Position numbers and translations under genes: made by a program. The notes beneath the pieces were generated by a model, which saw only the letters and a program-made list of their open reading frames with translations, made no database searches and was not told the DNA's origin. A stretch of DNA of 64,000 nt from contig OZ244170.1 in assembly GCA_965216565.1 (NCBI GenBank), positions 864,001 through 928,000 on the forward strand. Direction: 5' to 3'. Shown here piece by piece: positions 8,036 to 23,864 of the stretch (positions are counted from its first letter, which is position 1; every line of letters starts with the position of its first letter). The DNA is from Bythopirellula sp. (GTDB lineage Bacteria; Planctomycetota; Planctomycetia; Pirellulales; Lacipirellulaceae).

Positions 8036-8725
8036 TCAATCCGCGGGCTTCGAGATTTTTAGTGCTTGGTAGATCCGCCCGTCGCGCAGGGTATTGGCCA
8101 AGAACTGGACGCCGTCGAAATCGTGTACGTGACTACGTCCAGCCGGCACGGCCACTGTGTAGGCACCGGAAGCCACGCCAGCTTGGCACCCGATTTGGCT
8201 ATCTTCAAGAATCATCATCTCTGCCGGTTCGATGCCGTGCTGTCTGGCCGCTTTCTGATAGACATCCGGGGCTGGCTTGCCTCGTTCGATGTCCTCGCAA
8301 GTGAGCACAAAGGAAAATCTGCCGCGGAGGTCAAACTTGTCGAGGGCAGTGTGCGCGAACTGTCGATGACTGCTGGTTGCGATACCCTTAGGAATATCGG
8401 CCGTCTCTAAGCTATCCAATAGAGTCAGCAAACCTGGCATGGTCTCGAGTTTGTCCTGCATCAGCCGAAACATAATCTCACGCGACTCCTGAAACAACTC
8501 GTCCACGGTCTCGGTGAGCCCATGCCAGTCGATCATTAGTTGCAAGGCAACGTCAGCCTTGCGACCCATCATCTGGTCGAGCAGATCCTGCGAAGATATC
8601 TTGCCGCGGCGTTCGAGAAGGACGTGATCGACTTCCTGGTAGAGATGTTCTGTGTTGAACATCAATCCATCTAGATCGAACGTGACGGCGCGAATAGAAC
8701 TTGGTGGACTTGGGAAGTCAGTCAT
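8036..8725 (-). CDS. HAD family phosphatase
   Basis: FDLDG, ATSS, KPAPD, EDS motifs. Confidence 0.9.
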   Translation of the reverse strand: MTDFPSPPSSIRAVTFDLDGLMFNTEHLYQEVDHVLLERRGKISSQDLLDQMMGRKADVALQLMIDWHGLTETVDELFQESREIMFRLMQDKLETMPGLLTLLDSLETADIPKGIATSSHRQFAHTALDKFDLRGRFSFVLTCEDIERGKPAPDVYQKAARQHGIEPAEMMILEDSQIGCQAGVASGAYTVAVPAGRSHVHDFDGVQFLANTLRDGRIYQALKISKPAD

Positions 8726-10386
8726 GGCTTCGGTGGGGCTTCTTTGGGTGAGTCATCTGAGGCTGGTGAGACGTCATAAATTGAATACCAAGCATTTCCA
8801 TAAACTTGCGGAAAGTCCAGAGGAGGATATTCGCGAGCAATCACATAATCGATCTTATACTTATTGGCGAGTTCTCGAATTCGCTCGGTTCCCAGTAGGG
8901 CCAGGGTGCCGACGGGTACCATCTGCCCGAATTCATCTTCGACTAAGAACACATCGCTGTAACGGTTGAACCAGTCGATGAGGGAGGCGGCATCCTGGGG
9001 GACATCTTTCCAAGTGACCAGGCTTTTACGCCCCGCATGCCAGGAGAGGGACTGCGAGGTACGCGGGACCAGGAACAAATCGTCAGGCGTGGAATTTTGC
9101 TTGGCCCAATCGCAGGCTTCGTGCCAGGCGACTACACCGGCAAGTTTGGCGTCCGCGGGGGCAGCGGGGAATCGCCAGCGGCTGATGCTGGCGTCGGCTA
9201 AATGCCAGGCAGGCAGCAGTAGAGCGATTCCAAGAGCCGCGGGGGCCAACTTGTTTCGCTGGCGGAATAGCCTGGCAATCCAAAAGCAGACCAGCAAACT
9301 TGCGGCGAGCGCTACGCCCGCATCGGCTAGGCGGAACCAATAGTATTTGAGAAGCGGAGCAACACTTTGTTCATCGTTGTATCTAGCCAATTCCACTAGG
9401 AGCCCAATGACACCAATCAAAAATGTAGCCGCCGAGAACCGGCAAATTCGATCCAGAGCCAAACCTTGACGCTCGCTGACGATGGTCGAGTTCCTGACTT
9501 TCGTGCGGAGCAACCCCCAAAGATACAAAAAGCCCAGCAGTGGTACGGCAAATCGCCGAGCGAGCATGACAATCCGTTCGGGCGTCTGATGCAGAAGTGC
9601 CAAGTGGTGCCTGAGACGCTCGAAGACATAGATGCGAGCCGCTTCGCGGCTTTCCTCCGCAGAAACTTGGGCGGTTAGTGCCAGCGCCGGCAAGATGCCC
9701 GGCAATGCCAATAAGAGACCGAGAATGAGAGAGGGCCCCATGCTGAGGAGAGAAGGACGCGTCTGGCGAGATTCAAGTAACCAAACCAGGCCAGCCGCGA
9801 TTGCCGCCCAGCCACCGACCAGCACGTGGAACGCCCCCCCCAAACCAAACCAAGGCCAAGCACGATTCCAACGCCCCTGAGACAGATTAGCAAGCCCAAG
9901 GAACACGCACGGATAGGCAAAAGTTTTTCCTTCGACACCACCCACAACCCATTCGCCAGCAAAGTTCATGTTGCTGGTAAGCCAAACGAACAAGGCCGCG
10001 GACAGCACCGAGGCAAATCTGGCATCGGTCACGCAGCGACTCAAACGCTGCCAACTCCAGGCGAAGGCCAGCCACGCCGCTAGTCGGCCAATCCAGGCCA
10101 CAGTTGCCAGCGAGAAGAATTGAGTCAGCCAGCCAACCGTCCAGTAAAAGGTGAGATGTGCGTCAGCCGACTCCAAAAAAGGATCGCCTGCACACCAGTC
10201 GGGCTGCCAGTAATGTTTAGCCTTGGGGAGATAGTGCGATTCGTTCACCTGTGGCGGAGGCGCTCCGCCGTGAACAAAGCAGACGACCAAGATCAGCGCA
10301 ATTTCCAAGTAGCGTTGCCAATTGCTTTGCTCGCGGGGAACATCATGTTCTGAAACTGCGGTCGCCATGCACTTAGCGTAGGACAA
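8722..10386 (-). CDS. polytopic membrane protein (DUF6798-like)
   Basis: Many TM helices; VNESHYL, GEWVVGGVEGK, WKDVP; start codon uncertain. Confidence 0.65.
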   Translation of the reverse strand: MSYAKCMATAVSEHDVPREQSNWQRYLEIALILVVCFVHGGAPPPQVNESHYLPKAKHYWQPDWCAGDPFLESADAHLTFYWTVGWLTQFFSLATVAWIGRLAAWLAFAWSWQRLSRCVTDARFASVLSAALFVWLTSNMNFAGEWVVGGVEGKTFAYPCVFLGLANLSQGRWNRAWPWFGLGGAFHVLVGGWAAIAAGLVWLLESRQTRPSLLSMGPSLILGLLLALPGILPALALTAQVSAEESREAARIYVFERLRHHLALLHQTPERIVMLARRFAVPLLGFLYLWGLLRTKVRNSTIVSERQGLALDRICRFSAATFLIGVIGLLVELARYNDEQSVAPLLKYYWFRLADAGVALAASLLVCFWIARLFRQRNKLAPAALGIALLLPAWHLADASISRWRFPAAPADAKLAGVVAWHEACDWAKQNSTPDDLFLVPRTSQSLSWHAGRKSLVTWKDVPQDAASLIDWFNRYSDVFLVEDEFGQMVPVGTLALLGTERIRELANKYKIDYVIAREYPPLDFPQVYGNAWYSIYDVSPASDDSPKEAPPKP

Positions 10387-10468: not shown

Positions 10469-11962
10469 TCAGTCCGCCAGCTTGGGGAACTCGTCCTTGA
10501 GTGCGGCGTATAGATCTTGGTAGGTAGGGAACGCCGCGTCGTAGGCTTTTCGGTTCTTGGCGATCGGTTTGGTGCTAGACGCCGTCTTGACGGTAGCCGT
10601 GCAGGCTTCGCTAATATTCTTAAACCAACCCGCACCCACGGCAGCAAGCAGGGCCACCCCATAGCCTGGCCCCTCATCGGCTTCCATGGCGGTCACCGTT
10701 TTGCCGAAGACGTCGGCCTGCATCTGTCGCCAGAAAGGACTCTTCGATCCTCCGCCCGACGCGCGAATCTGCCGTACCGGGACGTCGAGTTCCTGCATGA
10801 TGGCGAGCGAATCGCGAAGCGAGTACGTGACACCTTCTAGAATCGAGCGGGAAATGTGTCCCCGCGTGTGTTTGAGAGTGAATCCAATCAGGGCTCCTCT
10901 GGCAAGAGGATCAAGGTGGGGAGTACGCTCTCCAGATAGGTAGGGCAAGAAATACAGCCCCTCGGAACCGGGCGGGACACCGTTGGCTTCGCTAGTGATT
11001 TGGTCGAATTTGGTTCCCGGACAGAACGCGTCGCGGTACCAACCCAGTGAGCCACCCGCATTCAGCGTGACACCCATCATGTGCCATTTGCCTTTCACTG
11101 CATGGCAGAAGGTGTGGAGGCGTCCCTGGGGATCGAATTGGGGTTTGTCGCTATGGGCGAACACCACGCCTGAGGTGCCAATCGAGGTGGCTAGCATGCC
11201 CGATTTCACAATGCCATTGCCCACGGCACCAGCGGCACAGTCGCCCGCCCCGCCAACCACCAAGCAATCGGTCGTGAGCCCCAGCTTTTCGGCGGCCTGT
11301 TTGGTAAGAGAGCCGGTGACTTCCTCCGACTCGAAACAGGAGGGCAGCAGGTCAGCATCCAAGTCGAGCTTTTTCAGCAGTCGGCTCGACCACTTCCGTT
11401 TCACGACATCGAACAGCAACGTCCCGCTGGCGTCGCTTACATCGGTGGCATACTCCCCCGTCAAGCGGCGGCGGATTTCGTCTTTTGGGAGCAGCACTTT
11501 CTTTAGCTTTTTGAAGTTGCGAGGCTCGTTATTTCTGAGCCAAAGGATTTTTGGTGCCGTGAAGCCCGTGAGCGCGGGATTGGCAACCATTTTGATCAAT
11601 TGCTTACGACCCCCGGCCGCTGCTTCAATCTCTTCGCATTCGGCGGTGGTGCGTTGATCGTTCCAAAGCAGGGCAGGGCGGATCACCTTGTCTTTGCTGT
11701 CCAGAAACACCGAGCCATGCATCTGCCCGGAGAGCCCAATTGCCTTCACGTCAGAGGGTTTGAGTTTCGCCTTCTTGACGACCGAATGGACAACTTTCAC
11801 TGTGGCCTTCCACCAATCTTCGGGATCTTGCTCGCTCCATAATGGTTTGGGGTGGGCACAGGGATAGCCTGTTGCTGCTTGGGCGACGATCTTGCCTTTG
11901 GCATCGATGGCCAGTGCTTTGGTGCCTGAGGTTCCGACGTCAATTCCGATACAAACATTCAT
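10469..11962 (-). CDS. xylB: xylulokinase
   Basis: FGGY kinase motifs: GIDVGTSG, SGQMHG, LWNDQR, YLSGERTP. Confidence 0.9.
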   Translation of the reverse strand: MNVCIGIDVGTSGTKALAIDAKGKIVAQAATGYPCAHPKPLWSEQDPEDWWKATVKVVHSVVKKAKLKPSDVKAIGLSGQMHGSVFLDSKDKVIRPALLWNDQRTTAECEEIEAAAGGRKQLIKMVANPALTGFTAPKILWLRNNEPRNFKKLKKVLLPKDEIRRRLTGEYATDVSDASGTLLFDVVKRKWSSRLLKKLDLDADLLPSCFESEEVTGSLTKQAAEKLGLTTDCLVVGGAGDCAAGAVGNGIVKSGMLATSIGTSGVVFAHSDKPQFDPQGRLHTFCHAVKGKWHMMGVTLNAGGSLGWYRDAFCPGTKFDQITSEANGVPPGSEGLYFLPYLSGERTPHLDPLARGALIGFTLKHTRGHISRSILEGVTYSLRDSLAIMQELDVPVRQIRASGGGSKSPFWRQMQADVFGKTVTAMEADEGPGYGVALLAAVGAGWFKNISEACTATVKTASSTKPIAKNRKAYDAAFPTYQDLYAALKDEFPKLAD

Positions 11963-12169
11963 ACGTTGCCATTCCTTAGATTCGCGAGAGCCACTTGGGC
12001 CTTCGAGCGACTATTGCGATCGAAACATAAACCACGGATAAATTTCTCGCACCGTCTGTAGTCTTTTATGGTGCCGAGCGGGCCGCTGCAGATGGCAGCT
12101 TCAAGCGTTACAATTAATTGTTTCGCTCGCCCCGAGTTTTCACTGTTGTAGCAAGACCATAGGTTACAC

Positions 12170-13495
12170 ATGATTGGCCGTCTATTGCTAGCCGCAATAA
12201 TTTTGAACCTGACAAGTTTGGTCGGCTGCGATCAGGAGTCGCAAAAAACAGCATCCGTTTCTCCAACGGCTCAGACTCGTCGCGCTGCTGTCTCCCTGAA
12301 ATTATTGGTCGTTGGCGATCCCCAGCTAGCGGAGGCCGTGCGATTGCAGCGGGGTGAATGGGCCGAGCGAAGCGGCGGAGAACTGATCGTTCAAGAGGTC
12401 AGCCGAGAAGAGTTCCAAACCGCCGAATTGCCCAACGCCGATGTGATTATCTACCCCACACAGTATCTAGCCGAGTTGGTCGTCGGAAAACAACTGCGAA
12501 CCATTCGGCAATCTGTGCTCGACGATTCTCGGTTTGTGTTTGACGATCTCCTGCCAGTCGTACGCAACGAAGTGATGCGCTACGGTGGTGAATTCTTCGC
12601 GATTTCTTTGGGTGAGGCTCCCTTGATGCTTGCTCGCGTTGCCGGCTCGGATGACGAAACTGAAGCCGAAGCTGCACCAAATCGGGCGCCGACTTGGACT
12701 GAACTCGCGAAGCTCCATCTAGAAGGGCGGCCAGCGGAGGAACTTATCGCTCGAGCGGCAAGTTTTGTCGATCCTCAATTACGCAGCGAGCTGCTCTTCG
12801 ACCCCAAAGACATGAACCCACGCCTGACGGCCCCTCATTTTCGCAGAGCACTGGAGCAAATGGCTTTAGGTGGTGGAAATAGACCAGAGGCAGGCGGCTA
12901 TAAAGTAGCATGCCCTACTGCTAGTGCATTGGGGGATAGTCAAAGGTGGCGACTTTCGAGACTGCCTCAAGCCGAAGAGACGTATAACTCGATTCGCGAA
13001 CGCTGGGAACCACAAACGCTAACTCCCACCTTGGCGGTGATTGGATTTGCTGGTCGAGCCGCGAGCGTGACATCCTCCACTCGAAACGCGACGTCGGCAT
13101 TCAAATTGCTCGGCTGGTTAGGCAGCGGTACGCCAGCTATTCGCATTAGCAGCAGTAGCGAGGAGACAACCTTCTTCCGCAATTCGCAGCGCCGCCAATC
13201 GGAGAAGTGGCTGGGCCGTTCGAATGAGGGGGCTGCAGCACCCATTGCGGCTTTGCTCTCAACCGACGAGCCTTTCTTGATGCCTCGTATTCCAGAAATA
13301 GACCGATATCTCGACGTGCTAGACGAAACCTTGAAACAAGATCGGGCCCTTAAGCAGGAAGATAGAGGCCAGGATATCGCCGAGTTGCTCGAATCTGTAT
13401 CAAAGAGATGGCAAGAGCTCACGGAGAAGTTGGGCCGAGAGCGTCAGTTGCATTGTTACCGGCTCCATTTAGGCCTGGAAAGCTGGTCCGATTGA
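12170..13495 (+). CDS. lipoprotein, extracellular solute-binding-like
   Basis: Lipobox LVGC; weak resemblance to sugar-binding proteins; divergent from xylB. Confidence 0.6.
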   Translation: MIGRLLLAAIILNLTSLVGCDQESQKTASVSPTAQTRRAAVSLKLLVVGDPQLAEAVRLQRGEWAERSGGELIVQEVSREEFQTAELPNADVIIYPTQYLAELVVGKQLRTIRQSVLDDSRFVFDDLLPVVRNEVMRYGGEFFAISLGEAPLMLARVAGSDDETEAEAAPNRAPTWTELAKLHLEGRPAEELIARAASFVDPQLRSELLFDPKDMNPRLTAPHFRRALEQMALGGGNRPEAGGYKVACPTASALGDSQRWRLSRLPQAEETYNSIRERWEPQTLTPTLAVIGFAGRAASVTSSTRNATSAFKLLGWLGSGTPAIRISSSSEETTFFRNSQRRQSEKWLGRSNEGAAAPIAALLSTDEPFLMPRIPEIDRYLDVLDETLKQDRALKQEDRGQDIAELLESVSKRWQELTEKLGRERQLHCYRLHLGLESWSD

Positions 13496-13876: not shown

Positions 13877-15121
13877 ATGATTCGTAGCGCTCAGGACGAC
13901 CACCGTATCGTGATCACTGGAGTGGGGCTCACTGCGCCTAATGGAAACAACTTGGCCGACTACCGGGCGGCCCTGTTGGCGGGCAAGAGCGGCGTTGATC
14001 GCTACCACATCCGCTACGTGGGCGATACGCTCGCTGGCCAGTGCGACTTCGACGAACTGAAACATCAAAAGCGCAAGGAATTGCGACGCGGAACCCGAGC
14101 CGGCAGCGTCGGCATCTATTGTGCCAACGAGGCGATCGCCGATTCGGGCATCGAATGGTCGGAACTCGATCGCAACCGAGTGGGCGTTTACGTTGGCGTG
14201 ACCGAGCACGGCAATGTTGAGACCGAAAACGAGATTAACGAGATCAAGGCGTTTGATTACGACACCAAGGTTTGGTCGCATCATCACAACCCACGTACCG
14301 TGGCGAACAACCCCGCAGGCGAAATTACGCTGAATCTTGGCATCACGGGACCTCACTACACGATTGGTGCCGCCTGTGCCGCAGGTAATGCCGGTTTGAT
14401 CCAAGGCGCTCAGATGCTGCAACTGGGCGAGTGCGACCTGGCCATTGCCGGTGGACTTTCCGAAAGCATTCACACTTTTGGCATCTTCGCCGGATTTGCG
14501 AGCCAAGGGGCACTTGCTGCCAATGTCGATCCGGCCAGTGCCAGTCGTCCCTTCGATCGCGATCGCAATGGCATCGTGGTTTCGGAAGGGGGGTGCCTGT
14601 TCGTATTAGAGCGTTACAGCAGCGCTGCACTACGCGGCGCAAAAATCTATGGCGAACTGGTTGGCCACGCGATGACCAGCGATGCCAGCGACTTTGTGCT
14701 TCCCAATCCAGAGCAGCAAGCTCGTTGTATGAATTTGGCGCTCGATCGGGCTGAGCTTAATGCCGAGGATATCGACATTGTAAGCACTCATGCCACTGCC
14801 ACGGAAAGTGGCGATATCCAGGAATGTGCCGCATTGCGACGTGTTTTCGGCGATTCACCAGAGGTGTTGATCAACAATACGAAGAGTTTCATCGGTCACG
14901 CAATGGGAGCGGCTGGATCGTTGGAGTTGGTAGGCAATTTGCCGGCTTTCACAGATAATATTTGCCATCATACGATCAACGTCGACCATCTCGATCCGCA
15001 ATGCGAGTTGCCGGGATTGGTGCTCCAAGAGCCAAGAACAAAGAAGAATGTCGAGTATATTCTCAACAATTCCTTTGGAATGTTGGGGATCAATTCGGTG
15101 GTGATCATCAAACGAGTGTAG
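13877..15121 (+). CDS. beta-ketoacyl-ACP synthase (FabF/FabB family)
   Basis: Intact C-H-H triad: AACAAG, THATAT, KSFIGHAMGAAG; also RPFDRDRNG and NSFG. Confidence 0.92.
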   Translation: MIRSAQDDHRIVITGVGLTAPNGNNLADYRAALLAGKSGVDRYHIRYVGDTLAGQCDFDELKHQKRKELRRGTRAGSVGIYCANEAIADSGIEWSELDRNRVGVYVGVTEHGNVETENEINEIKAFDYDTKVWSHHHNPRTVANNPAGEITLNLGITGPHYTIGAACAAGNAGLIQGAQMLQLGECDLAIAGGLSESIHTFGIFAGFASQGALAANVDPASASRPFDRDRNGIVVSEGGCLFVLERYSSAALRGAKIYGELVGHAMTSDASDFVLPNPEQQARCMNLALDRAELNAEDIDIVSTHATATESGDIQECAALRRVFGDSPEVLINNTKSFIGHAMGAAGSLELVGNLPAFTDNICHHTINVDHLDPQCELPGLVLQEPRTKKNVEYILNNSFGMLGINSVVIIKRV

Positions 15122-15194
15122 TCCCCGGCTTTGCCGCGGGATTGTGAGAACCCTAAACTTAGCCAATCAGATCCTCCGGCAGAGCCGGGGGCTA
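15118..15194. repeat. REP-like pair TAGCCCCCGGCTCTGCCGGGG, copy 1
   Basis: Inverted arms GTAGTCCCCGGCTTTGCCG / CCGGCAGAGCCGGGGGCTA; copy 2 at 50464-50546. Confidence 0.75.
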
Positions 15195-15222
15195 GCAAAG
15201 AATTATCACAAAGAGAAATAAC

Positions 15223-15483
15223 ATGACTAACGAAGAGATCCGAGAAGAAGTCCTCGACATCCTTGAAGTAATTGCTCCCGATGAAGACTTGAGCAATCTG
15301 GACGATGGGGTGAATTTCCGCGACCAGCTTGAACTCGATAGCATGGACTTCTTGGATATCGTCATGGAACTACGCAAGCGTCACCGCGTTCAGATCCCCG
15401 AAGACGACTATGTCAATCTGGCCAGCATGGACTCGACGGTCACGTATCTCGAACCGATGATGAAAGACATTCAAAAGGTTTGA
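15223..15483 (+). CDS. acyl carrier protein
   Basis: 86 aa, acidic, LDSMDF phosphopantetheine site. Confidence 0.92.
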   Translation: MTNEEIREEVLDILEVIAPDEDLSNLDDGVNFRDQLELDSMDFLDIVMELRKRHRVQIPEDDYVNLASMDSTVTYLEPMMKDIQKV

Positions 15484-15493
15484 GTGGAGGCAG

Positions 15494-15604
15494 GAGTTAG
15501 TGACTAAGAGCTAGAGACTAGGGAACTCTAGAAATCCGATCCTTGGTAACTTGGGCCTTGCTCTTTTCTCTCAACTAGCCCCTAGTCCCCAAATCCTAGC
15601 CCCT
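15494..15604. repeat. inverted arms of 7-nt tandem units (GAGCTAG / CTAGCCC)
   Basis: gagttag tgactaa gagctag agactag ... caactag cccctag tccccaa atcctag. Confidence 0.65.
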
Positions 15605-15607
15605 CCC

Positions 15608-16984
15608 ATGTATGACACGATTATTATCGGCGCTGGAATGTCGGGGCTGGCGGCCGGGATTCGTCTGGCGTATTACGATCAGAAGGTCTGCATTCTCGAA
15701 CGGCATTATACGATCGGCGGGCTCAATTCTTTCTACCGCATGCGAGGGCGCGACTACGACGTCGGCCTACACGCGCTCACCAATATCACTCCTAAAGGCA
15801 CCAAGAAGGGCCCGTTGGCGCGACTGTTAAGACAGCTGCGCATGTCTTGGGACGAGCTGGAAATCGCCCCCCAGGTGGGCTCGGCAATCGTTTTTCCGGG
15901 CACGAGTTTAAAATTCACCAACGAGCTCGACCTGTTGCGCGCAGAAGTCGCCCGCGAATTCCCTAACCAGATCGATAACTTCGAAAAGCTGATCGCATCG
16001 GTTGTGGAGTACGACGATCTCGACGAGTCGCACCAGCATATCTCCGCACGCGAGCATCTGGGAACGATTATCACTGAGCCGTTGCTGATCGAGATGTTAT
16101 TTTGCCCACTAATGTTTTATGGTTCGGCTCGCGAGTACGACATGGATTGGGGACAGTTCTCGATCATGTTCCGCAGCATTTTTATGGAAGGCCTGGGGAG
16201 GCCGTTTGCCGGAGTGCGGTTGATCCTCAAGCAGTTGGTGCGGAAGTTTCGAGGGCAGGGCGGCGAGCTAAAGCTCCGTGCGGGCGTCAAACGGCTGATT
16301 GTGGAAGACAGCCAGGTGCGCGGCGTCGAGCTAGAAAGCGGCGAAGTGATCGAGGGTCGCCGTGTGCTTTCCTCTGCTGGTTGGTGCGAGACGATGCGGA
16401 TGTGTGACGATGGAGAGCCCGTGGCCAGTCGGGCACCAGGGAAGCTGAGTTTTTGTGAAACCATCGCCACGCTCGATATCCAACCTCAGCAGCTCGGTTA
16501 CGACCGTACCATCACGTTCTTCAACGATTCGGACAAGTTCGACTGGTCAGCCTCCAACTCGCCCTGTGATGTGCGGAGCGGGGTGATCTGTTCTCCGAAT
16601 AATTTCGAATACGGTCAGTTGCTTGACGAAGGCACGATGCGTATCACCGTGCTGGCCGATTTCGACTATTGGAAAAACTTGGACGAACAAACGTATGCCC
16701 TCGAAAAGCTCCGGTGGTACGACGCGATCACCGAGTCGGCCGTGCGATTTGTTCCCGACTACCGCAATCGGGTGATTGATACCGACATGTTTACGCCCAC
16801 CACCATCGTGCGATTCACGGGGCACGACAATGGGGCCATCTACGGAGCCCCAGAGAAACAAATCGATGGCCGTACGCACCTCAAGAACCTGTTCGTCTGT
16901 GGCACCGACCAAGGCTTCGTCGGTATCATCGGCAGCGTCACCAGCGGCATCGGCATGGCTAACCAGCATTGTTTGCGGGATTGA
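15608..16984 (+). CDS. phytoene desaturase (CrtI)-like FAD oxidoreductase 1
   Basis: IIGAGMSGL FAD motif, DVGLHA, TPTTIVRFTGHDNGAIYG, NLFVCG. Confidence 0.85.
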   Translation: MYDTIIIGAGMSGLAAGIRLAYYDQKVCILERHYTIGGLNSFYRMRGRDYDVGLHALTNITPKGTKKGPLARLLRQLRMSWDELEIAPQVGSAIVFPGTSLKFTNELDLLRAEVAREFPNQIDNFEKLIASVVEYDDLDESHQHISAREHLGTIITEPLLIEMLFCPLMFYGSAREYDMDWGQFSIMFRSIFMEGLGRPFAGVRLILKQLVRKFRGQGGELKLRAGVKRLIVEDSQVRGVELESGEVIEGRRVLSSAGWCETMRMCDDGEPVASRAPGKLSFCETIATLDIQPQQLGYDRTITFFNDSDKFDWSASNSPCDVRSGVICSPNNFEYGQLLDEGTMRITVLADFDYWKNLDEQTYALEKLRWYDAITESAVRFVPDYRNRVIDTDMFTPTTIVRFTGHDNGAIYGAPEKQIDGRTHLKNLFVCGTDQGFVGIIGSVTSGIGMANQHCLRD

Positions 16985-17072
16985 GGTGATTGAACGTGAG
17001 AGTATCTTCACACAGCGTATCCTCTCAAAAGCGAAGTAACTAACTCATTGATAAATCACTCCAACTGGAGCT

Positions 17073-17725
17073 GCCCTGAAAGGGCAAGGTACGACAGCCC
17101 AGGGCGCTAGCCCTGGGTGCGGAGAGAACCCAGTATTTAGCCCTGACGGGGCGTCATAATGGTTTGAAAAACGAGTTATTATGGCTCAATCATTGTCCAA
17201 CGTTCTCTTGCATCTGGTATTCAGCACGAAAAATCGGCGTCCCTGGATTGATGCACAAATCGAGTCTGAAATGCACGCCTATTTGGCTTCTGTATGCAAG
17301 TCGCTGGGATGTCCCGCGCAAAAAGTCGGAGGTGTTGAAGATCACGTGCACGTTTTGTGCTTACTCTCTCGGACGATTGAGATCAGTGATTTATTGGGAA
17401 AAATCAAGGCAAACTCGTCACGTTGGATTAAAACCAAAGGGCCAGGATACAGCGAGTTTTCATGGCAAAACGGATATGGTGCGTTCTCAATTGGGCAGTC
17501 CCAGTTGGAAGCTGCCAAAGAGTACATCGCAAATCAAAGGGAGCATCATCGAGGCCGATCTTTCCAAGAGGAGTATCGAGCATTGCTGGAAAAGTACCGC
17601 GTCGAGTATGATGAGCGTTACGTTTGGGATTGAGTTTTAGGCCGCTCCGTTGGAGGTCTGGGTTGTAAATCGATCCCAAACCCAGGGCTGACGCCCTGGG
17701 CTATCGTAGGTCGGCCTTTCAGGCC
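17073..17725. mobile_element. Y1 (HUH) transposase element bounded by 46-bp palindromic inverted repeats (IS200-like or REP-associated)
   Basis: Left arm GCCCTGAAAGGGCAAGGTACGACAGCCCAGGGCGCTAGCCCTGGGT; right arm (reverse complement) GGCCTGAAAGGCCGACCTACGATAGCCCAGGGCGTCAGCCCTGGGT. Confidence 0.8.
17181..17633 (+). CDS. tnpA: IS200/IS605-family tyrosine transposase TnpA
   Basis: HLVFSTK, DHVH (HUH), WQNGYGAFS, catalytic Tyr in YIANQ. Confidence 0.92.
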   Translation: MAQSLSNVLLHLVFSTKNRRPWIDAQIESEMHAYLASVCKSLGCPAQKVGGVEDHVHVLCLLSRTIEISDLLGKIKANSSRWIKTKGPGYSEFSWQNGYGAFSIGQSQLEAAKEYIANQREHHRGRSFQEEYRALLEKYRVEYDERYVWD

Positions 17726-17771
17726 TGAATTCTAAAAACTTGTCCTCGCCCAAGAACCACACCGCTGACCG

Positions 17772-19220
17772 ATGCCGAAAGATTTTCTGAAAGATGCTCG
17801 GGACGAGTACGATGTGGTTGTCATCGGCAGTGGCCTGGGGGGGCTGACTGCGGCCAATATGTTGGCTCGTAACGGATACAGCGTTCTATTGCTTGAGCAG
17901 CATTACAAGCTGGGTGGCATGGCCACGTGGTTCAAACGGCCCGGCGGGCACATTTTTGACATCTCGTTGCATGGCTTTCCCTACGGCATGGTGAAAAGCT
18001 GTCGGCGGTATTGGAACCAAGAAATAGCCGACTCGATTGTGCAGCTCAATCACATTCGGTTCGACAATCCGATGTTCTCGCTAACTACGACGTTCAATCG
18101 CAAGGATTTCACGAAGTTATTGATCGAAGAATTTAAAGTCGACTCGGAGGCGGTGAACGGGTTCTTCGACGCCGCACGACAGATGGACTTCCAAGACGAT
18201 CAGCATTTGACGACACGCGAGCTATTCGATCGCTTTTTCCCTGGACGCGAAGATGTGATTCGCCTGTTGATGGAGCCGATCACTTACGCCAATGGAAGTA
18301 CGCTCGAAGATCCCGCGATCAGCTACGGGATCGTGTTTTCAAACTTTATGAGCAAGGGCGTGTTTACGTTTCAAGGCGGCACCGACCGACTCATTAAGTT
18401 GATGGAACAGGAGATGATCGACAGCGGCGTCGACATCCGCATTAAGTGCGATGTGGAAAAGATTAACTGCGAAGGGGGGCGGGTCCGCTCGGTTGTGGTG
18501 AATGGACGTACGATCAAAACGAAGGCCGTCGTTTCCAATGCAAATCTCAAGCAGACGATTTTCCGCTTGGTGGGAGAAGATAAATTCGATTCCAAGTTTG
18601 TGGAAGATGCTCGGGCGGTACGGTTGAATAATTCGAGTACACAGGTCTACATGGCACTGAAGGAAGACGACGAGATCGACGAGTCGACCGGGGACTTGCT
18701 ATTTAGCTCCACCGCCCCGCTGTTCCGCACCGATCTGCTCCTCAGCCGCGATATTACCAGTCGTACGTATTCGTTCTACTATCCCCGCACACGTCCCCAG
18801 GGGAAACCACGGTGTCTGATCGTTTCCAGCACGAATGCCCGTTACGAAGATTGGGCGGACCTCTCGGAAGAAGAGTACGAGGCGAGCAAGCAGGACCTCG
18901 TGGAAACCACGCTCGACGCTTTGGATAAATACGTGCCCAACGTTCGCGAGCGGATCGACCATGCCGAGGCTTCCACGCCGCTCACGTTCAAGCATTACAC
19001 GCAGCACATTGCGGGCGCGAGTTTCGGGACCAAGTTCGAGGGCTTACGAGTGAGCTTCGATGTGCCTAAGCAAATCGAGGGGCTCTATCACGCTGGTAGC
19101 GTCGGCATTATCATGTCCGGCTGGCTAGGGGCGATGAACTATGGGCGAATGGTTTCCAGCGACGTAGATAACTACCTGGCCACCAACTCGTCCCGTCCCG
19201 CGGCTGAGGTTGGTTCTTAA
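17772..19220 (+). CDS. phytoene desaturase (CrtI)-like FAD oxidoreductase 2
   Basis: [27 protein letters not shown]...GASFG, GLYHAG. Confidence 0.85.
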
Positions 19221-19230
19221 GTTTTTGTCC

Positions 19231-19454
19231 CTCGCATAGGCGCTAAGGCTCACAGACTAGGATCATGCTCAGGTACGCAAAGCCTTAGTAGACAGGATGA
19301 CTGGATTGGCCGGATTAACAAGATAGGATTTCATCGTTGCAAGCTATTTCAAATTCCATAGCGCGTTTAGTCTCCGGACAATGATTTTTTGTTGAACCGG
19401 TCACACTTTTATCAAGTCAAATCGCTCACTTTGCGGCTTAGCGCCTTTGCGAGA
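19231..19454. repeat. composite inverted-arm element (outer CGCAAAGGCGCTAAG family, nested CAGGAT 9-mer arm)
   Basis: CTCGCATAGGCGCTAAGG (19231) pairs with CTTTGCGGCTTAGCGCCTTTGCGAG; inner TAGACAGGATGACTGGATT matches the arm at 55410. Confidence 0.7.
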
Positions 19455-19467
19455 GACAATTCAAAAT

Positions 19468-19929
19468 ATGACCCTCGAAACCATCAAAGCGGCTATTCCG
19501 CATCGGGAACCATTTCTTCTTGTTGACGAGATTGTGGAACAGACCGCAGAGCGTATTGTTTGCCGCAAGCAGTTCAGTGGCGACGAATTCTGGTACCAGG
19601 GGCATTATCCGGACTATCCACTGACGCCTGGAGTCCTGCTTTGCGAAGCGGCCATGCAAGCGGGAGCGGTATTGCTTTCGGAGATCACGAAGCAAGCGCA
19701 GGAGAACGAAATCCCTGGCGGTGTGCCGGTGGCGACGCGGCTGAATAACGTGCAGTTTCGCAACATGGTCCATCCCGGACAGAGTATTCAGATCGAAGTC
19801 GATCTCATAGAGCGTCTCTCGAATGCCTATTTCATGAAGGCCAAGGTTACGAACGAATCCACGGGCAAACTGGCCGCGCGGCTGGAGTTTGCCTGCACGG
19901 TCGCACCGCCGGAGGCCAACGCTCCGTAG
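19468..19929 (+). CDS. 3-hydroxyacyl-ACP dehydratase, FabZ/FabA family
   Basis: IPHREPFLLVD; GHYP...PGVLLCE His/Glu dyad. Confidence 0.88.
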   Translation: MTLETIKAAIPHREPFLLVDEIVEQTAERIVCRKQFSGDEFWYQGHYPDYPLTPGVLLCEAAMQAGAVLLSEITKQAQENEIPGGVPVATRLNNVQFRNMVHPGQSIQIEVDLIERLSNAYFMKAKVTNESTGKLAARLEFACTVAPPEANAP

Positions 19930-19945
19930 GGAGCGGTAAACGTTC

Positions 19946-20758
19946 ATGCCTGCCGATTTTCTCCAACTCGCTGGGAAGCGCATCGTGGTATTCGGCGTGG
20001 CCAATCGCAAGAGCGTGGCCTACCACGTGGCTCAGGTTCTCCAAGAAGCCGATGCCGAGGTAATTTACGTCGTCAGGAGCGAGGACCGCCGGCAATCGGT
20101 TGGCAAGCTTATCGGGGATCGACCTCTTTACGTTTGCGATGTGGAGCATCAGGACCAAATCGATCATCTGGCCGACGAACTCAAGCAGAGCTACGACGAA
20201 CTTCATGGCATCGTGCATTCCATCGCCTTTGGCGACTACTCAGAGGGGCCCAAGCCCTTCCACGAAACAAGCAAGGATCAAATGCTAAGGGCCTTTGATA
20301 TCTCTTGTTTTTCACTGGTGGCTATATCCAATGCTCTGAAGAATTCGCTCGTTAAGGATGCCTCTGTGGTAACGATCTCGATATCTACCACGCGGATGGC
20401 TAGTGAAAACTATGGCTTTATGGCCCCGGTGAAAGCAGCCCTCGATTCCAGCCTGGCATTTTTGGCGAAATCGTTCAGCCGATTTTCGGAAGTTCGTTTC
20501 AATGCCGTTTCGCCTGGCTTGCTGAAAACTTCCGCTTCGGCGGGTATTCCCGGCTATGTGGATAGCTATCTCTATGCCGAGCGAGCGACGCTTCGGCACC
20601 GCGCCGTGGAGACTGGCGAGGTGGCCAATGCGGTGGCGTTTTTGCTCAGCCCCCGATCGAGTGGGATGACCACGCAGCGGCTGGTGATCGATGCTGGGAT
20701 GGAGGTCAACTACTTCGACGAGGGGCTTATTCAAGCTCAAAGTCCCGAAAAACCGTAA
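19946..20758 (+). CDS. enoyl-ACP reductase, FabI-like SDR
   Basis: [22 protein letters not shown] (YxxMxxxK), T.ASAGIPG. Confidence 0.88.
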
Positions 20759-21120
20759 GTTATTCTGATATCAATAAATCAAATGTCCTAACGGGGTCTT
20801 TCGCTCAGAGCTGTTTTTTTACTGGAATCGCGTTATAAAACCTCCTAGAGAGGTAACAGTTCTGGCAGTATCTAAGCCTGAATGATATCCTTGAAGTAGA
20901 GGCGAAGACCAGAACCAAGGGGCGGTTGGTGCACATTTTGGTGCTGACTATTCCGAAAAGGCCTGACTGGCTTCCTATGCAACAGAGAAAACTTATCTTT
21001 ACGGACGGTCGTCCCGATGGTGGTGGCGCATGACGCGTTACAATCATGTAGAATCTACGTGATGATTTAGCCCTGACTCGTTCTGGGTGCAATCGGCTGT
21101 TGGACCGGCTTGGCAACCAA

Positions 21121-22671
21121 ATGTCAAAAGCAGTGGCACAAAGCTTCCTGGATCTTGTGAAACGGAGTCAACTGGTTGAAAAAGACCAGCTGTCGAAGTT
21201 TCTCGACAAGTACCGCAAGGAGCACGACGGAAAGCTCCCCGAGCGCCAAGAGGCGCTAGCTGAGGCAATGGTCGACGCCGATCTCATAACAGATTGGCAA
21301 TCGGAAAAACTTCTGGCCGGAAAGCACAAGGGCTTCATTCTCGGCAAATACAAATTGCTCCGCCACTTGGGCAAAGGGGGCATGAGCCAGGTCTACTTGG
21401 CCGAGCACATCATGATGCGTGTGCGGCGGGCCATCAAAGTCTTGCCTCCCAATCGGGTTGAGGATTCGACTTACCTGGAGCGATTTCGCATTGAAGCCCG
21501 AGCCGCGGCTAAGCTCGATGATCCAAATATTGTCCGGGCTTACGACATCGATCAGGATGGCCGAACTCATTATTTGGTCATGGAGTATGTCGAAGGTAAG
21601 GACCTCCATGTATTAGTCAAAGAGAAGGGCCCGCTCAAGTTTGAAGTGGCCGCCGACTACATTGCCCAAGTCGCACGCGGACTGTCGCACGCCCATGCGA
21701 TGGGGCTCGTGCACCGCGACATCAAACCGGCGAATTGCCTGGTTGATAACAATCAGGTCGTCAAACTGTTGGACATGGGACTGGCCCGGCTTATCGATGA
21801 CGAAGAGTCTCTCACTCTCGACAACAACGAAAACGTCCTGGGCACAGCAGACTATCTGGCTCCCGAGCAGGCAATCAACAGCCATAAAGCCGACAAGCGG
21901 GCAGATATCTATAGCCTGGGCTGCACGTTGTACTTCCTGCTGACGGGGCATCCCCCATTTCCCGAAGGTTCAATCTCCGAACGCCTATTAAAACATCAAA
22001 CCGACAGCCCGCCGAGCATTCTCAAAGATCGGCCGGATGCTCCACCGATGCTTTTGAATATTTGCGAACGGATGATGCTGAAAAACCCTGACGAGCGTTA
22101 TCAGTCTGCGATGGACGTAGCCGATCGGCTTTCCGAGTGGCTGGAAGATCGAGGCCATGTAGTTGGCGATCTGAAAAAGAAATCGGAGTCGGATTCCGGC
22201 TTCGGCAGCGATTCTTTCCGTCGTTTTGCCAATTTATCGAATCCAAGTTCGGCGGATTCGGGCAGCAGGATTCGCGGCAAAAGCTCCACCAAAATCCCCA
22301 AAGTTACCCGACCTGCGGTTGCTCAGGAGCCAGAAGAAGAAATTGGTCTGGCGCCGTTAGAGGAAGAGAAGCCCCAAGAAGACGAGAGCGTCGACGATTT
22401 GGCAGCAGCTACCGATGACCTAACCAGTGCCAAGTTCGAAACGGTTGCCACCGAGCCACGTAAATCGCTGATCGAAGAAACCTTCGAAGCGGAAGCAGCT
22501 CAGGAAGACAAAGCCAAGGAGCGTTTCCAAAAACGCCAGGGAGAGTTCGACCCACTGCGACCTCCTGGCTATAGCGGTCCCAGCTATGGAACGCCAGGTT
22601 GGGTTTACGCCCTCATCGGCGTGGGAGTCTTGGGATTGATCGGATTGGTGAGCTTCTTCGCGTTTACTTAA
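21121..22671 (+). CDS. Hanks-type Ser/Thr protein kinase with C-terminal TM anchor
   Basis: LGKGGM, AIK, HRDIKPAN, DMG, GTADYLAPE. Confidence 0.93.
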   Translation: MSKAVAQSFLDLVKRSQLVEKDQLSKFLDKYRKEHDGKLPERQEALAEAMVDADLITDWQSEKLLAGKHKGFILGKYKLLRHLGKGGMSQVYLAEHIMMRVRRAIKVLPPNRVEDSTYLERFRIEARAAAKLDDPNIVRAYDIDQDGRTHYLVMEYVEGKDLHVLVKEKGPLKFEVAADYIAQVARGLSHAHAMGLVHRDIKPANCLVDNNQVVKLLDMGLARLIDDEESLTLDNNENVLGTADYLAPEQAINSHKADKRADIYSLGCTLYFLLTGHPPFPEGSISERLLKHQTDSPPSILKDRPDAPPMLLNICERMMLKNPDERYQSAMDVADRLSEWLEDRGHVVGDLKKKSESDSGFGSDSFRRFANLSNPSSADSGSRIRGKSSTKIPKVTRPAVAQEPEEEIGLAPLEEEKPQEDESVDDLAAATDDLTSAKFETVATEPRKSLIEETFEAEAAQEDKAKERFQKRQGEFDPLRPPGYSGPSYGTPGWVYALIGVGVLGLIGLVSFFAFT

Positions 22672-22802
22672 GGAACCGAGGAAGAATAACTTTTTCCGAA
22701 GAGGCTAGGTCGTTTTCACCGTTTGGGTTCCGCCGCACCCTGTACTTATCGCGGTGTCTTGGCAGACACCGCTAACTCAGGCGAAAGTGCCAACCGGCCT
22801 CG

Positions 22803-23864
22803 CTACTGGGAACTCTTATTCCCGGCGACCAAACTCTTTTGCCACTCCAGGCCGATCATTTGGCAGTTGATCCCCGAGCCAATTCCGAGCAGAGCGACGC
22901 GATCGTTCTCTGCGATGTGCCCCGACTCTGCTGCTAAGGCTAACGTCAAAGGCAAAGCGGCTGCGCCTGTGTTGCCGAGCCATTCCAGGGTGGCATAGTC
23001 GAGTGTAGGCGTGAGATTGAGAGCTTCGAACAATAGTTTGCGATGTGCCACACCGACTTGATGGCAAATCGTTTTGTCGATATCGCTCCGCTGCCAAGTG
23101 GTATCGGCGAGAAATTGCTTGAAAGTATGCTTGCCCGCCGCCACACCATGGGCCATTAACTGTTCGCTGTCAGTCTGCATAAAAGTTTCCAGGCCTTCAC
23201 TCTTACAAAGCAGGTGATGGTTGGTTTCGGCTCGAACGGTCGACGTGCGAAACCGATTACCAGACCGCGAGAGCGACTCGTCGCACAGCAGCATCGCGAC
23301 GCTTCCCGAGCCGATGGTCAAGGACGCAACCAGCAACTTAATATCCTGACGCGAGAGCGACAGGTCGGTATTCAGCCGCTCGACGGTATTTTCCACGAGC
23401 GTCCGCCCACACTCGGTGCCAACCACCAGCCCTGCACGAATCTGCCCGAGCTCGATCATATTGGCCAACTGGACGGCACCGCTGAGAATACCCAGGCAGG
23501 CGTTCGAAACATCGTAGATTAAGCACTCGCTGGGCAGTCCCAAGGCATGATGCACCGAACAGGCAGTGGCTGGTTCGAGATGATCGCGGCAGACTGAACC
23601 GTGGATAAGAGCACCGACATCTATCGGGTCGATATCGGCTGCTTCCAATGCCCGCCGACCGCTGTCGATACTCACACTTCCCGGCGTCGTGCCAGGAGGG
23701 AAAAATCGTCGCTCCTGAATGCCCGTCATCAATTCCAGCCGACCTTCCGGCAACCGCAGTCGTTCGTAGGCGGGCGCGAGTCGCGATTCGAGTTCCGCAG
23801 AACTAACCGCTTCCTCGGGCAACGTATAGCCGAGCGATTCTAAGCAGACGCGCTGATAGTTCAT
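22803..23864 (-). CDS. oleA: OleA-type 3-oxoacyl-ACP synthase III / thiolase
   Basis: TGIQERR, RDHLEPATA (Glu typical of OleA), NACLG, HQVG, GNTG, LGIGSGINC. Confidence 0.75.
   Translation of the reverse strand: MNYQRVCLESLGYTLPEEAVSSAELESRLAPAYERLRLPEGRLELMTGIQERRFFPPGTTPGSVSIDSGRRALEAADIDPIDVGALIHGSVCRDHLEPATACSVHHALGLPSECLIYDVSNACLGILSGAVQLANMIELGQIRAGLVVGTECGRTLVENTVERLNTDLSLSRQDIKLLVASLTIGSGSVAMLLCDESLSRSGNRFRTSTVRAETNHHLLCKSEGLETFMQTDSEQLMAHGVAAGKHTFKQFLADTTWQRSDIDKTICHQVGVAHRKLLFEALNLTPTLDYATLEWLGNTGAAALPLTLALAAESGHIAENDRVALLGIGSGINCQMIGLEWQKSLVAGNKSSQ

Follow-up and report, generated by a model that had tools for sequence, protein, structure and literature searches.

We analysed a 64-kb stretch of the genome of Bythopirellula sp. 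(Pirellulales), here called the window, which carries a compact group of fatty-acid synthase (FAS) genes close to oleA, the gene for a head-to-head condensing enzyme. The six co-oriented genes of this group, referred to here as the module, encode a FabF-like ketosynthase (KS), an acyl carrier protein (ACP), two flavoproteins (FP1 and FP2), a FabZ-type dehydratase (DH), and a FabI-like enoyl-ACP reductase (ER) (Table 1). The initial annotation of this DNA had described the same six genes, and all of them, the KS triad included, were found intact and in place; an IS200-family transposase gene between the two flavoprotein genes had been overlooked. The OleA-type gene that it reported downstream is present (438.7 bits on PRK09258, cut-off 285), although its position on the minus strand, convergent with the module, and the kinase gene in between had been missed. 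Genome comparisons give us good confidence that the module would act as a dedicated type II FAS feeding OleA in place of a Pfa synthase.

Table 1. Genes and features of the module, its surroundings, and the remaining ole genes. Positions are those of the 64-kb window, except where prefixed G000, the genome from which the window comes.
Feature	Position	Strand	Characteristics
FabF-like ketosynthase (KS)	13877..15121	+	C167/H305/H341 intact, K336; dedicated to module
Acyl carrier protein (ACP)	15223..15483	+	Ser40 within DSMD motif; dedicated to module
Flavoprotein 1 (FP1)	15608..16984	+	CrtI/amine-oxidase fold, own family, GxGxxG; start (ATG at 15608) picked by homologue starts
IS200/Y1 transposase insertion	17075..17723	+	Gene 17181-17633; 44-nt inverted repeats 17075-17118 and 17680-17723
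Flavoprotein 2 (FP2)	17772..19220	+	CrtI/amine-oxidase fold, own family, GxGxxG
FabZ-type hot-dog dehydratase	19447..19929	+	His53, Glu67; true start likely Met8
FabI-like enoyl-ACP reductase	19946..20758	+	Tyr156-x6-Lys163
Ser/Thr kinase	21100..22671	+	Between FabI and oleA
OleA head-to-head condensing enzyme	22803..23864	-	Glu97, Cys123, His268, Asn298; module-type OleA group
oleC-oleD	G000:4936346-4939280		
oleB	G000:4948496-4949374		45% identical to operon-encoded OleB of relatives; about 9 kb past oleD

Alignments with 26-75 relatives revealed that the catalytic residues of KS, FabZ, FabI, and OleA are conserved; their catalytic roles are presumed from the E. coli and Xanthomonas enzymes. 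As an elongation set, the cassette holds KS, ACP, DH, and ER with intact catalytic residues and lacks a ketoreductase (KR); the genes that best match FabG are found beyond the window, in agreement with the earlier statement that the window has no fabG. The KS carries two family-specific, invariant motifs, EHGNVETEN and WSHHHNPRT (window 14204-14300, KS residues 110-141), which lie N-terminal of the catalytic Cys and stand where ordinary FabF has its GSGIGG region. These polar motifs may reshape the acyl channel for kinked chains. Residue 146 of the module FabI (window 20381-20383) is Ile, and housekeeping FabI has Tyr in the same column; this Ile may widen the pocket.

The module recurs as a unit in related genomes. 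Among the related loci (the best 80 of 271 found with FP2, many cut by contig ends), all six module genes are present in 33, a recurrence which indicates that the arrangement is not due to chance. An ole gene occurs in 37 of the 80 loci and in 26 of the 33 complete ones. Bythopirellula and Lacipirellula are the closest relatives that bear names. The module of Blastopirellula marina lies between oleC and oleD, ahead of KS, and oleA, which comes after FabI. Among 20 loci from distant genomes, three (L086-L088) run oleA-regulator-KS-ACP-FP1-FP2-KR-FabZ-FabI-oleB-oleC-oleD on one strand, two (L091 and L092) place oleABCD ahead of the module, and eight contain a dedicated FabG-like gene between FP2 and FabZ, which the G000 cassette lacks. 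A MarR-like regulator stands ahead of KS in seven of these 20 (among them L086, at 11954-12694, L088, L091, L092, L096, and L103), and no homologue of it was found in G000. We also collected 77 metagenome loci, 36 of them at least 10 kb long; an ole gene lies in 15 and a dedicated KR in six of the 36, and two (L185 and L186) present eleven genes on one strand, oleA-B-C-D-KS-ACP-FP1-FP2-KR-FabZ-FabI. The 179 loci checked contained no pfaD, and one of them has a radical-SAM homologue, searched with one query. In L005, a contig labelled Granulosicoccus but probably a mis-binned planctomycete one, the module genes are 82-87% identical and are accompanied by the same kinase and oleA.

The distribution of the module across Planctomycetota links it to OleA and sets it against Pfa. 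The same 301 genomes were searched with FP2 (E<=1e-40), the module KS (E<=1e-120), pfaD, the C-terminal 1199 residues of PfaBC, and oleA. FP2 was found in 61 genomes and the module KS in those same 61, pfaD in 48 and the C-terminal PfaBC region in those same 48, and no genome combines the module with Pfa. All 61 module genomes and 47 of the 48 pfa genomes have oleA, which occurs in 109 genomes in total (61 module, 47 pfa, and one with neither), so that exactly one supplier accompanies it in 108 of 109. In 26 of the 61 genomes, FP2 lies within 20 kb of oleA. A second sample of 111 genomes of the window's order, four of them common to both samples, gave a matching picture: FP1 in 86, pfaD in six, and both in none, with oleA in 89 (85 with FP1, three with pfaD, and one with neither) and in 85 of the 86 FP1 genomes. 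Three families (f4, f49, and f105) each contain both module and pfa types. In the phylum sample, G002 alone has oleA without either supplier; its OleA sits on a long branch, and another, partial copy lies next to a kinase (contig C81, L133).

A tree of 51 OleA rows (30 from module genomes, 19 of 50 from pfa genomes, that of G002, and one FabH outgroup) separated all 19 pfa-genome OleAs from the 30 module-genome OleAs by a single branch (SH-aLRT 100), regardless of host family. Each supplier thus appears to travel with an OleA type of its own, and one whole cassette seems to take the place of the other, which supports equivalent roles; on the other hand, few independent events are involved, and the products could differ. 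Distribution, OleA tree, and gene order support both the connection to OleA and the substitution for Pfa that the initial annotation had suggested. Five pfa-linked OleAs from the window's class or order (L114-L118, of G277, G297, G272, G403, and G314) are 36-47% identical to the window OleA and about 40 residues longer; they look imported along with the pfa cluster.

G000 (5.2 Mb, one contig, 94% complete) has the complete Ole pathway; it lacks a Pfa synthase, and also any backbone synthase that a carotenoid desaturase could serve. The top PDB matches of the window OleA are what we take to be the Xanthomonas OleA. The initial annotation had seen no oleBCD in the window, and these genes lie elsewhere in the genome, about 4 Mb from the module in contig coordinates: oleC (649 bits, cut-off 478) is at 4936523, with an oleD-like gene directly after it. 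Neither pfaD nor the C-terminal PfaBC region was found in G000, and the best PfaA score stayed below cut-off (334 versus 1010 bits), so the combination of multidomain PfaA (KS-MAT-ACPn-KR-DH), PfaBC with FabA-like DH domains, and the PfaD reductase that defines a Pfa synthase is absent from this genome. Two type I polyketide synthase (PKS) genes were considered as Pfa and rejected after the PfaA, pfaD, and PfaBC searches. A separate housekeeping set (fabG-acp-fabF, fabZ, and fabI; fabG at G000:3052244-3053080) lies elsewhere and is 31-35% identical to the module genes (KS to FabF 33%, FabI to FabI 31%), and the module ACP has no close paralogue in G000. The module genes are thus not the only fab genes of the genome, the case in which they would have been mere housekeeping genes. 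The absence of crtB, noted earlier for the window, extends to the whole genome, with zero PF00494 (phytoene/squalene synthase) matches. G000 also has three membrane fatty-acid desaturase genes (PF00487).

Published lipid data indicate what OleA may receive. Formation of C31:9 in Shewanella requires Pfa, and OleA condenses a predicted 16:4 n-3 chain (PMC6463001, PMC4882568), which it likely receives from the ACP (PMC6463001). Among planctomycetes, Shulse and Allen report pfa clusters in Gemmata and Planctomyces limnophilus, with the suggestion that these feed Ole (PMC3098273), and Gemmataceae make n-C31:9 (PMC7534041). For Lacipirellula parvula, a facultative anaerobe that can ferment, n-C31:9 makes up 2.8% of the listed lipids and is the only hydrocarbon listed (PMC6995999). 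This species encodes FP2 at 83% identity (P0113); pfaD exceeded the cut-off in none of 14 genomes of its genus (that of L010), and in none of five further module genomes, B. marina and four others. From these comparisons, the product of the module is likely the C31:9 precursor. Alternatively, the module could supply another chain, conjugated or less unsaturated, for another olefin, with C31:9 arising from O2-dependent membrane desaturases. The separate grouping of module-type OleA, the three PF00487 desaturases of G000, and the single module-bearing species found with C31:9 data would fit this. We consider it unlikely, as equivalent products would give the strict either/or pattern with Pfa that is observed, no other hydrocarbon is listed for L. 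parvula (PMC6995999), and Gemmataceae, with a pfa cluster in Gemmata, also make n-C31:9 (PMC7534041, PMC3098273).

The two flavoproteins are 23.7% identical and homologous over their length, and FP2 is conserved at 54-88% identity across the phylum. Their AF2 models (pLDDT 90 and 91) show a CrtI/amine-oxidase fold with an FAD motif; the top structural match is 4REP (Z 30.9, rmsd 3.2, 432 aligned), and TM values to 4REP and 4DGK are 0.57-0.74 at 14-19% identity in the structural alignment. FP1 scored 46-75 bits and FP2 88-107 bits against family models of CrtI, CrtD, and CRTISO with cut-offs of 238-587 bits; the best score was 106.8 against 549.7, and the best NCBIfam match of FP1, a carotenoid isomerase, reached 74.7 against 586.9. 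In a tree of 28 rows, which includes two above-cut-off CrtI-family proteins of G001 and in which one spurious open reading frame (L110_511) was ignored, FP1 and FP2 each form their own group (support 98 and 100), apart from the CrtI-family proteins and from those of G026 (loci L107 and L111), a genome taken as anammox-type by its gene order. The initial annotation had named grouping with true carotenoid desaturases as a result that would overturn it, and no grouping with CrtI appears in this tree. Both flavoproteins have a His in a D-x-x-L-H motif; the two CrtI-type proteins read G-P-T at this place. Retinol saturase has a His at the position of this motif.

These results bear on the possibility that FP1 and FP2 are ordinary carotenoid desaturases beside housekeeping fab genes, or that the locus is a ladderane-type cluster. 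The database name 'phytoene desaturase family' would suit the former, while scores far under the CrtI, CrtD, and CRTISO cut-offs, the missing PF00494 synthase, the housekeeping set elsewhere, and the 191 of 301 genomes with none of module, oleA, and pfaD speak against it. As for the latter, the anammox-type desaturase-like proteins of G026 are 21-23% identical to FP1 and FP2 and sit on a separate branch. This explanation is largely refuted already, and we regard it as extremely improbable.

Natural fusions connect the two proteins: a search of longer proteins gave four matches, two of which (P0121 and P0123) are in-frame FP1-FP2 fusions. The others (P0122, FP2 with a galactokinase; P0124, FP2 with FabI and a garbled linker) were set aside as probable artefacts, and long open frames around FP2 in G194, G004, and G241 turned out to be separate genes. 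FP1 and FP2 may form a heterodimer, as the two natural fusions suggest. FP1 has 736 representatives at E<=1e-30 in a 50% library, a count that takes in other family members; by protein matches alone, named homologues occur in Verrucomicrobiota, Lentisphaerota, Deltaproteobacteria, Thermodesulfobacteriota, and Auribacterota. No Desulfotalea protein was named among the 53 matches, most of them without names, of a Thermodesulfobacteriota FP1 homologue.

Taken together, we find it reasonably likely from these comparisons that the module builds a polyunsaturated C16 chain (predicted 16:4 n-3) for OleABCD, giving C31:9 in planctomycetes that lack Pfa. KS would elongate the chain with malonyl-ACP, FabG would reduce the ketone (a dedicated enzyme in many distant cassettes, presumably the housekeeping one in G000), and the FabZ-type enzyme would yield 2-trans-enoyl-ACP. 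As in Pfa, the cycle could then end in three ways, by saturation through the FabI-like enzyme, by a 2-trans to 3-cis shift, or by a 2-trans to 2-cis switch; FP1 and FP2, as a pair, would carry out both isomerisations as reduced-FAD enoyl-ACP isomerases. The 16:4 n-3 chain on the module ACP would be handed to OleA, which would join two chains, and OleD, OleC, and OleB would complete the olefin.

FabZ-type dehydratases differ from FabA in having Glu rather than Asp, and the module dehydratase carries Glu. In Pfa, cycles end in reduction or in 2,2- or 2,3-isomerisation by FabA-like domains (DH-FabA), which gives cis bonds (PMC9702510). A full elongation set makes a double bond in each cycle, so what the module misses compared with Pfa is isomerisation; because it has two flavoproteins in place of the FabA-like isomerising domains, we infer that these would be the isomerases. 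When its FAD is reduced, CrtI acts as a cis-trans isomerase, and the same holds for CRTISO; as a desaturase, purified CrtI uses O2, accepts quinones instead, and forms an all-trans conjugated product (PMC3382138). The earlier statement that CrtI-family enzymes dehydrogenate without O2 was therefore too simple. By this analogy, we tentatively rank reduced-FAD isomerisation of enoyl-ACP ahead of desaturation, with slightly less than even confidence. The initial proposal that the module desaturates or elongates ACP-bound chains to a polyene, possibly feeding OleA, is thus supported for the OleA link, while desaturation is neither the only nor, in our view, the likeliest role.

A less probable version keeps the role as OleA supplier and makes FP1 and FP2 FAD- and quinone-dependent desaturases of ACP-bound chains. 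Their closest folds are carotenoid desaturases, quinones can stand in for O2 in CrtI (PMC3382138), and Rattray proposed such chemistry in 2009 for the C31:8 and C31:9 of D. psychrophila (PMC2649909). Set against this are the all-trans conjugation produced by CrtI, where Shewanella-type C31:9 is all-cis and methylene-interrupted (PMC3382138, PMC4882568, PMC6463001), and the KS/KR/DH/ER set, which already makes a double bond per cycle. It is also improbable, in our assessment, that FP1 and FP2 work at a stage later than condensation, or as reductases (saturases), and so would tailor the double bonds of a membrane-located ketone or olefin and not those of acyl-ACP. CrtI works on membrane hydrocarbons (PMC3382138), and the His of the D-x-x-L-H motif in both proteins, against G-P-T in the two CrtI-type proteins, would fit a saturase; however, the FP genes lie inside the KS-ACP...FabG-FabZ-FabI block and stay there when the ole genes move away, and P0124, possibly an artefact, joins FP2 to FabI.

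Several observations weigh against the proposal of an isomerising, OleA-feeding FAS. The best fold matches of both flavoproteins are carotenoid desaturases (4REP, 4DGK), which fit a desaturase equally with an isomerase, and one KS would need to cover the work of the two KS domains of Pfa. The either/or pattern has exceptions: G002 and G345 carry oleA with neither system, G299, G322, G334, and G355 have pfaD and no oleA at E<=1e-40, and G380 has FP1 and no oleA. As the genomes are related, the 0/109 overlap reflects few cassette swaps (in three families or more) instead of 109 separate events, and we give a Fisher test no weight. Several genomes have the module distributed over more than one locus (for instance L089, L090, L097, L100, L101, and L105). 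The OleA tree comes from a quick search only, and module-type OleA could yield another olefin. The lipid link between C31:9 and the module is one species, L. parvula, for which we found no double-bond positions and the absence of pfa is inferred at genus level. Finally, the three PF00487 membrane desaturases of G000 could add double bonds with O2.

Other features of the window and genome stand beside the module. A transposase homologue occupies the same spot in two of the 80 related loci, for which reason we regard this gene as a passenger outside the pathway. Its 44-nt inverted repeats are themselves made of palindromes, two homologues (45% and 39%) occur elsewhere in G000, and the flanks have zero further copies in this genome. 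We take the gene with its palindromic flanks to resemble a REP-associated tyrosine transposase, a resemblance short of assignment to a REP family. The kinase has a hydrophobic C-terminal tail and fills the same slot between FabI and oleA in 13 of the 80 loci (at least 40% identity, close relatives); its membership in the pathway is without support. A promoter and terminator scan stayed at chance level (7 versus 6.1 and 11 versus 11.5). Unrelated to the module, a 554-aa membrane protein with a DUF6798 domain is encoded at window 8722-10386 on the minus strand, upstream of a xylulokinase-like gene. Elsewhere in G000, roughly 16 kb away from oleC, a FabF-like gene without the usual motifs and a gene for a membrane fatty-acid desaturase are arranged back to back (G000:4918181-4920839). 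Two type I PKS clusters lie at G000:4461333-4477115 and 2346484-2355657, and the former includes two halogenase-like flavoprotein genes and an acyl-AMP ligase-like gene, as judged by eye from the translations.

Pfa and Ole have been described as making C31:9 together, but pfa is missing from over half of the sampled oleA-bearing planctomycete genomes, and the module fills this gap exactly. It turns the Pfa-independent anaerobic route that was proposed in 2009 into a defined set of genes open to testing, and the natural eleven-gene run on one strand (L185) could be expressed whole. Our full-text search found no published description of the cassette or of its exclusion with pfa, most subscription papers and all supplements lying outside its scope; the general idea of Rattray in 2009 concerns different clusters (PMC2649909). 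The chances seem to us evenly balanced that the module, with its six or seven small stand-alone enzymes, is a third way of making polyunsaturated acyl chains that are all-cis and methylene-interrupted, next to O2-dependent desaturases and Pfa megasynthases, in which a CrtI-fold pair sets the cis bonds on enoyl-ACP, and which would be the commoner C31:9 supplier in the sampled oleA-bearing Planctomycetota and likely present in other phyla. If 16:4 n-3 is indeed made by these discrete enzymes, the module would reveal the programming by which a type II system alternates saturation with cis bonds, the CrtI fold would gain new chemistry on acyl-ACP, omega-3 engineering would have a small modular alternative to Pfa megasynthases, and many environmental C31:9 producers would escape pfa screens.

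Among known systems, the combination of Pfa with OleABCD (Shewanella, Geobacter; pfa types I and J in Gemmata and Planctomyces limnophilus) is comparable in its ole neighbourhood, its KS, ACP, KR, DH, and ER functions, and its predicted product, and it occupies the slot of the module in 47 further oleA genomes from the phylum sample. One planctomycete pfa cluster located next to oleABCD (L131) has KS, AT, ACP, KR, PS-DH, and FabA-like domains and PfaD. In contrast, the module consists of discrete type II proteins with one KS, one stand-alone ACP, and a FabI-type rather than PfaD-type reductase; its cassette lacks FabA-like isomerising domains and an acyltransferase, and contains two flavoproteins absent from Pfa. 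In Xanthomonas and Stenotrophomonas, OleABCD draws on the core type II FAS. Here too OleA scores above the cut-off and oleB, oleC, and oleD are in the genome, but in all 61 module genomes OleA is coupled to a private FAS that has an ACP of its own, and not to the housekeeping FAS alone.

The FASII clusters of anammox bacteria (kuste3603-3608 and kuste3335-3352; Rattray, PMC2649909; Javidpour, PMC4790861), whose gene order G026 matches, and those of D. psychrophila (Rattray, PMC2649909) likewise combine KS, ACP, FabZ, and phytoene-desaturase-like genes and share the idea of an anaerobic non-Pfa route. The module differs in its canonical KS, its FabI, its tight ole link, and flavoproteins only 21-23% identical to those of G026, and FP2, the module KS, and oleA are found in none of the 23 genomes of the family of G026 (f30). 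The orthologous desaturase-like genes, radical SAM enzymes, and non-canonical FabF of ladderane clusters do not describe this locus, so the similarity to anammox clusters proposed initially amounts to a family-level likeness. Finally, CrtI, CrtD, CRTISO, and the P. acnes isomerase PAI (2B9W, Z 21.8) share the fold and FAD-binding motifs of FP1 and FP2, whereas these two fall under all family cut-offs for CrtI, CrtD, and CRTISO and form a fixed pair encoded with an ACP in a genome with no carotenoid backbone synthase.

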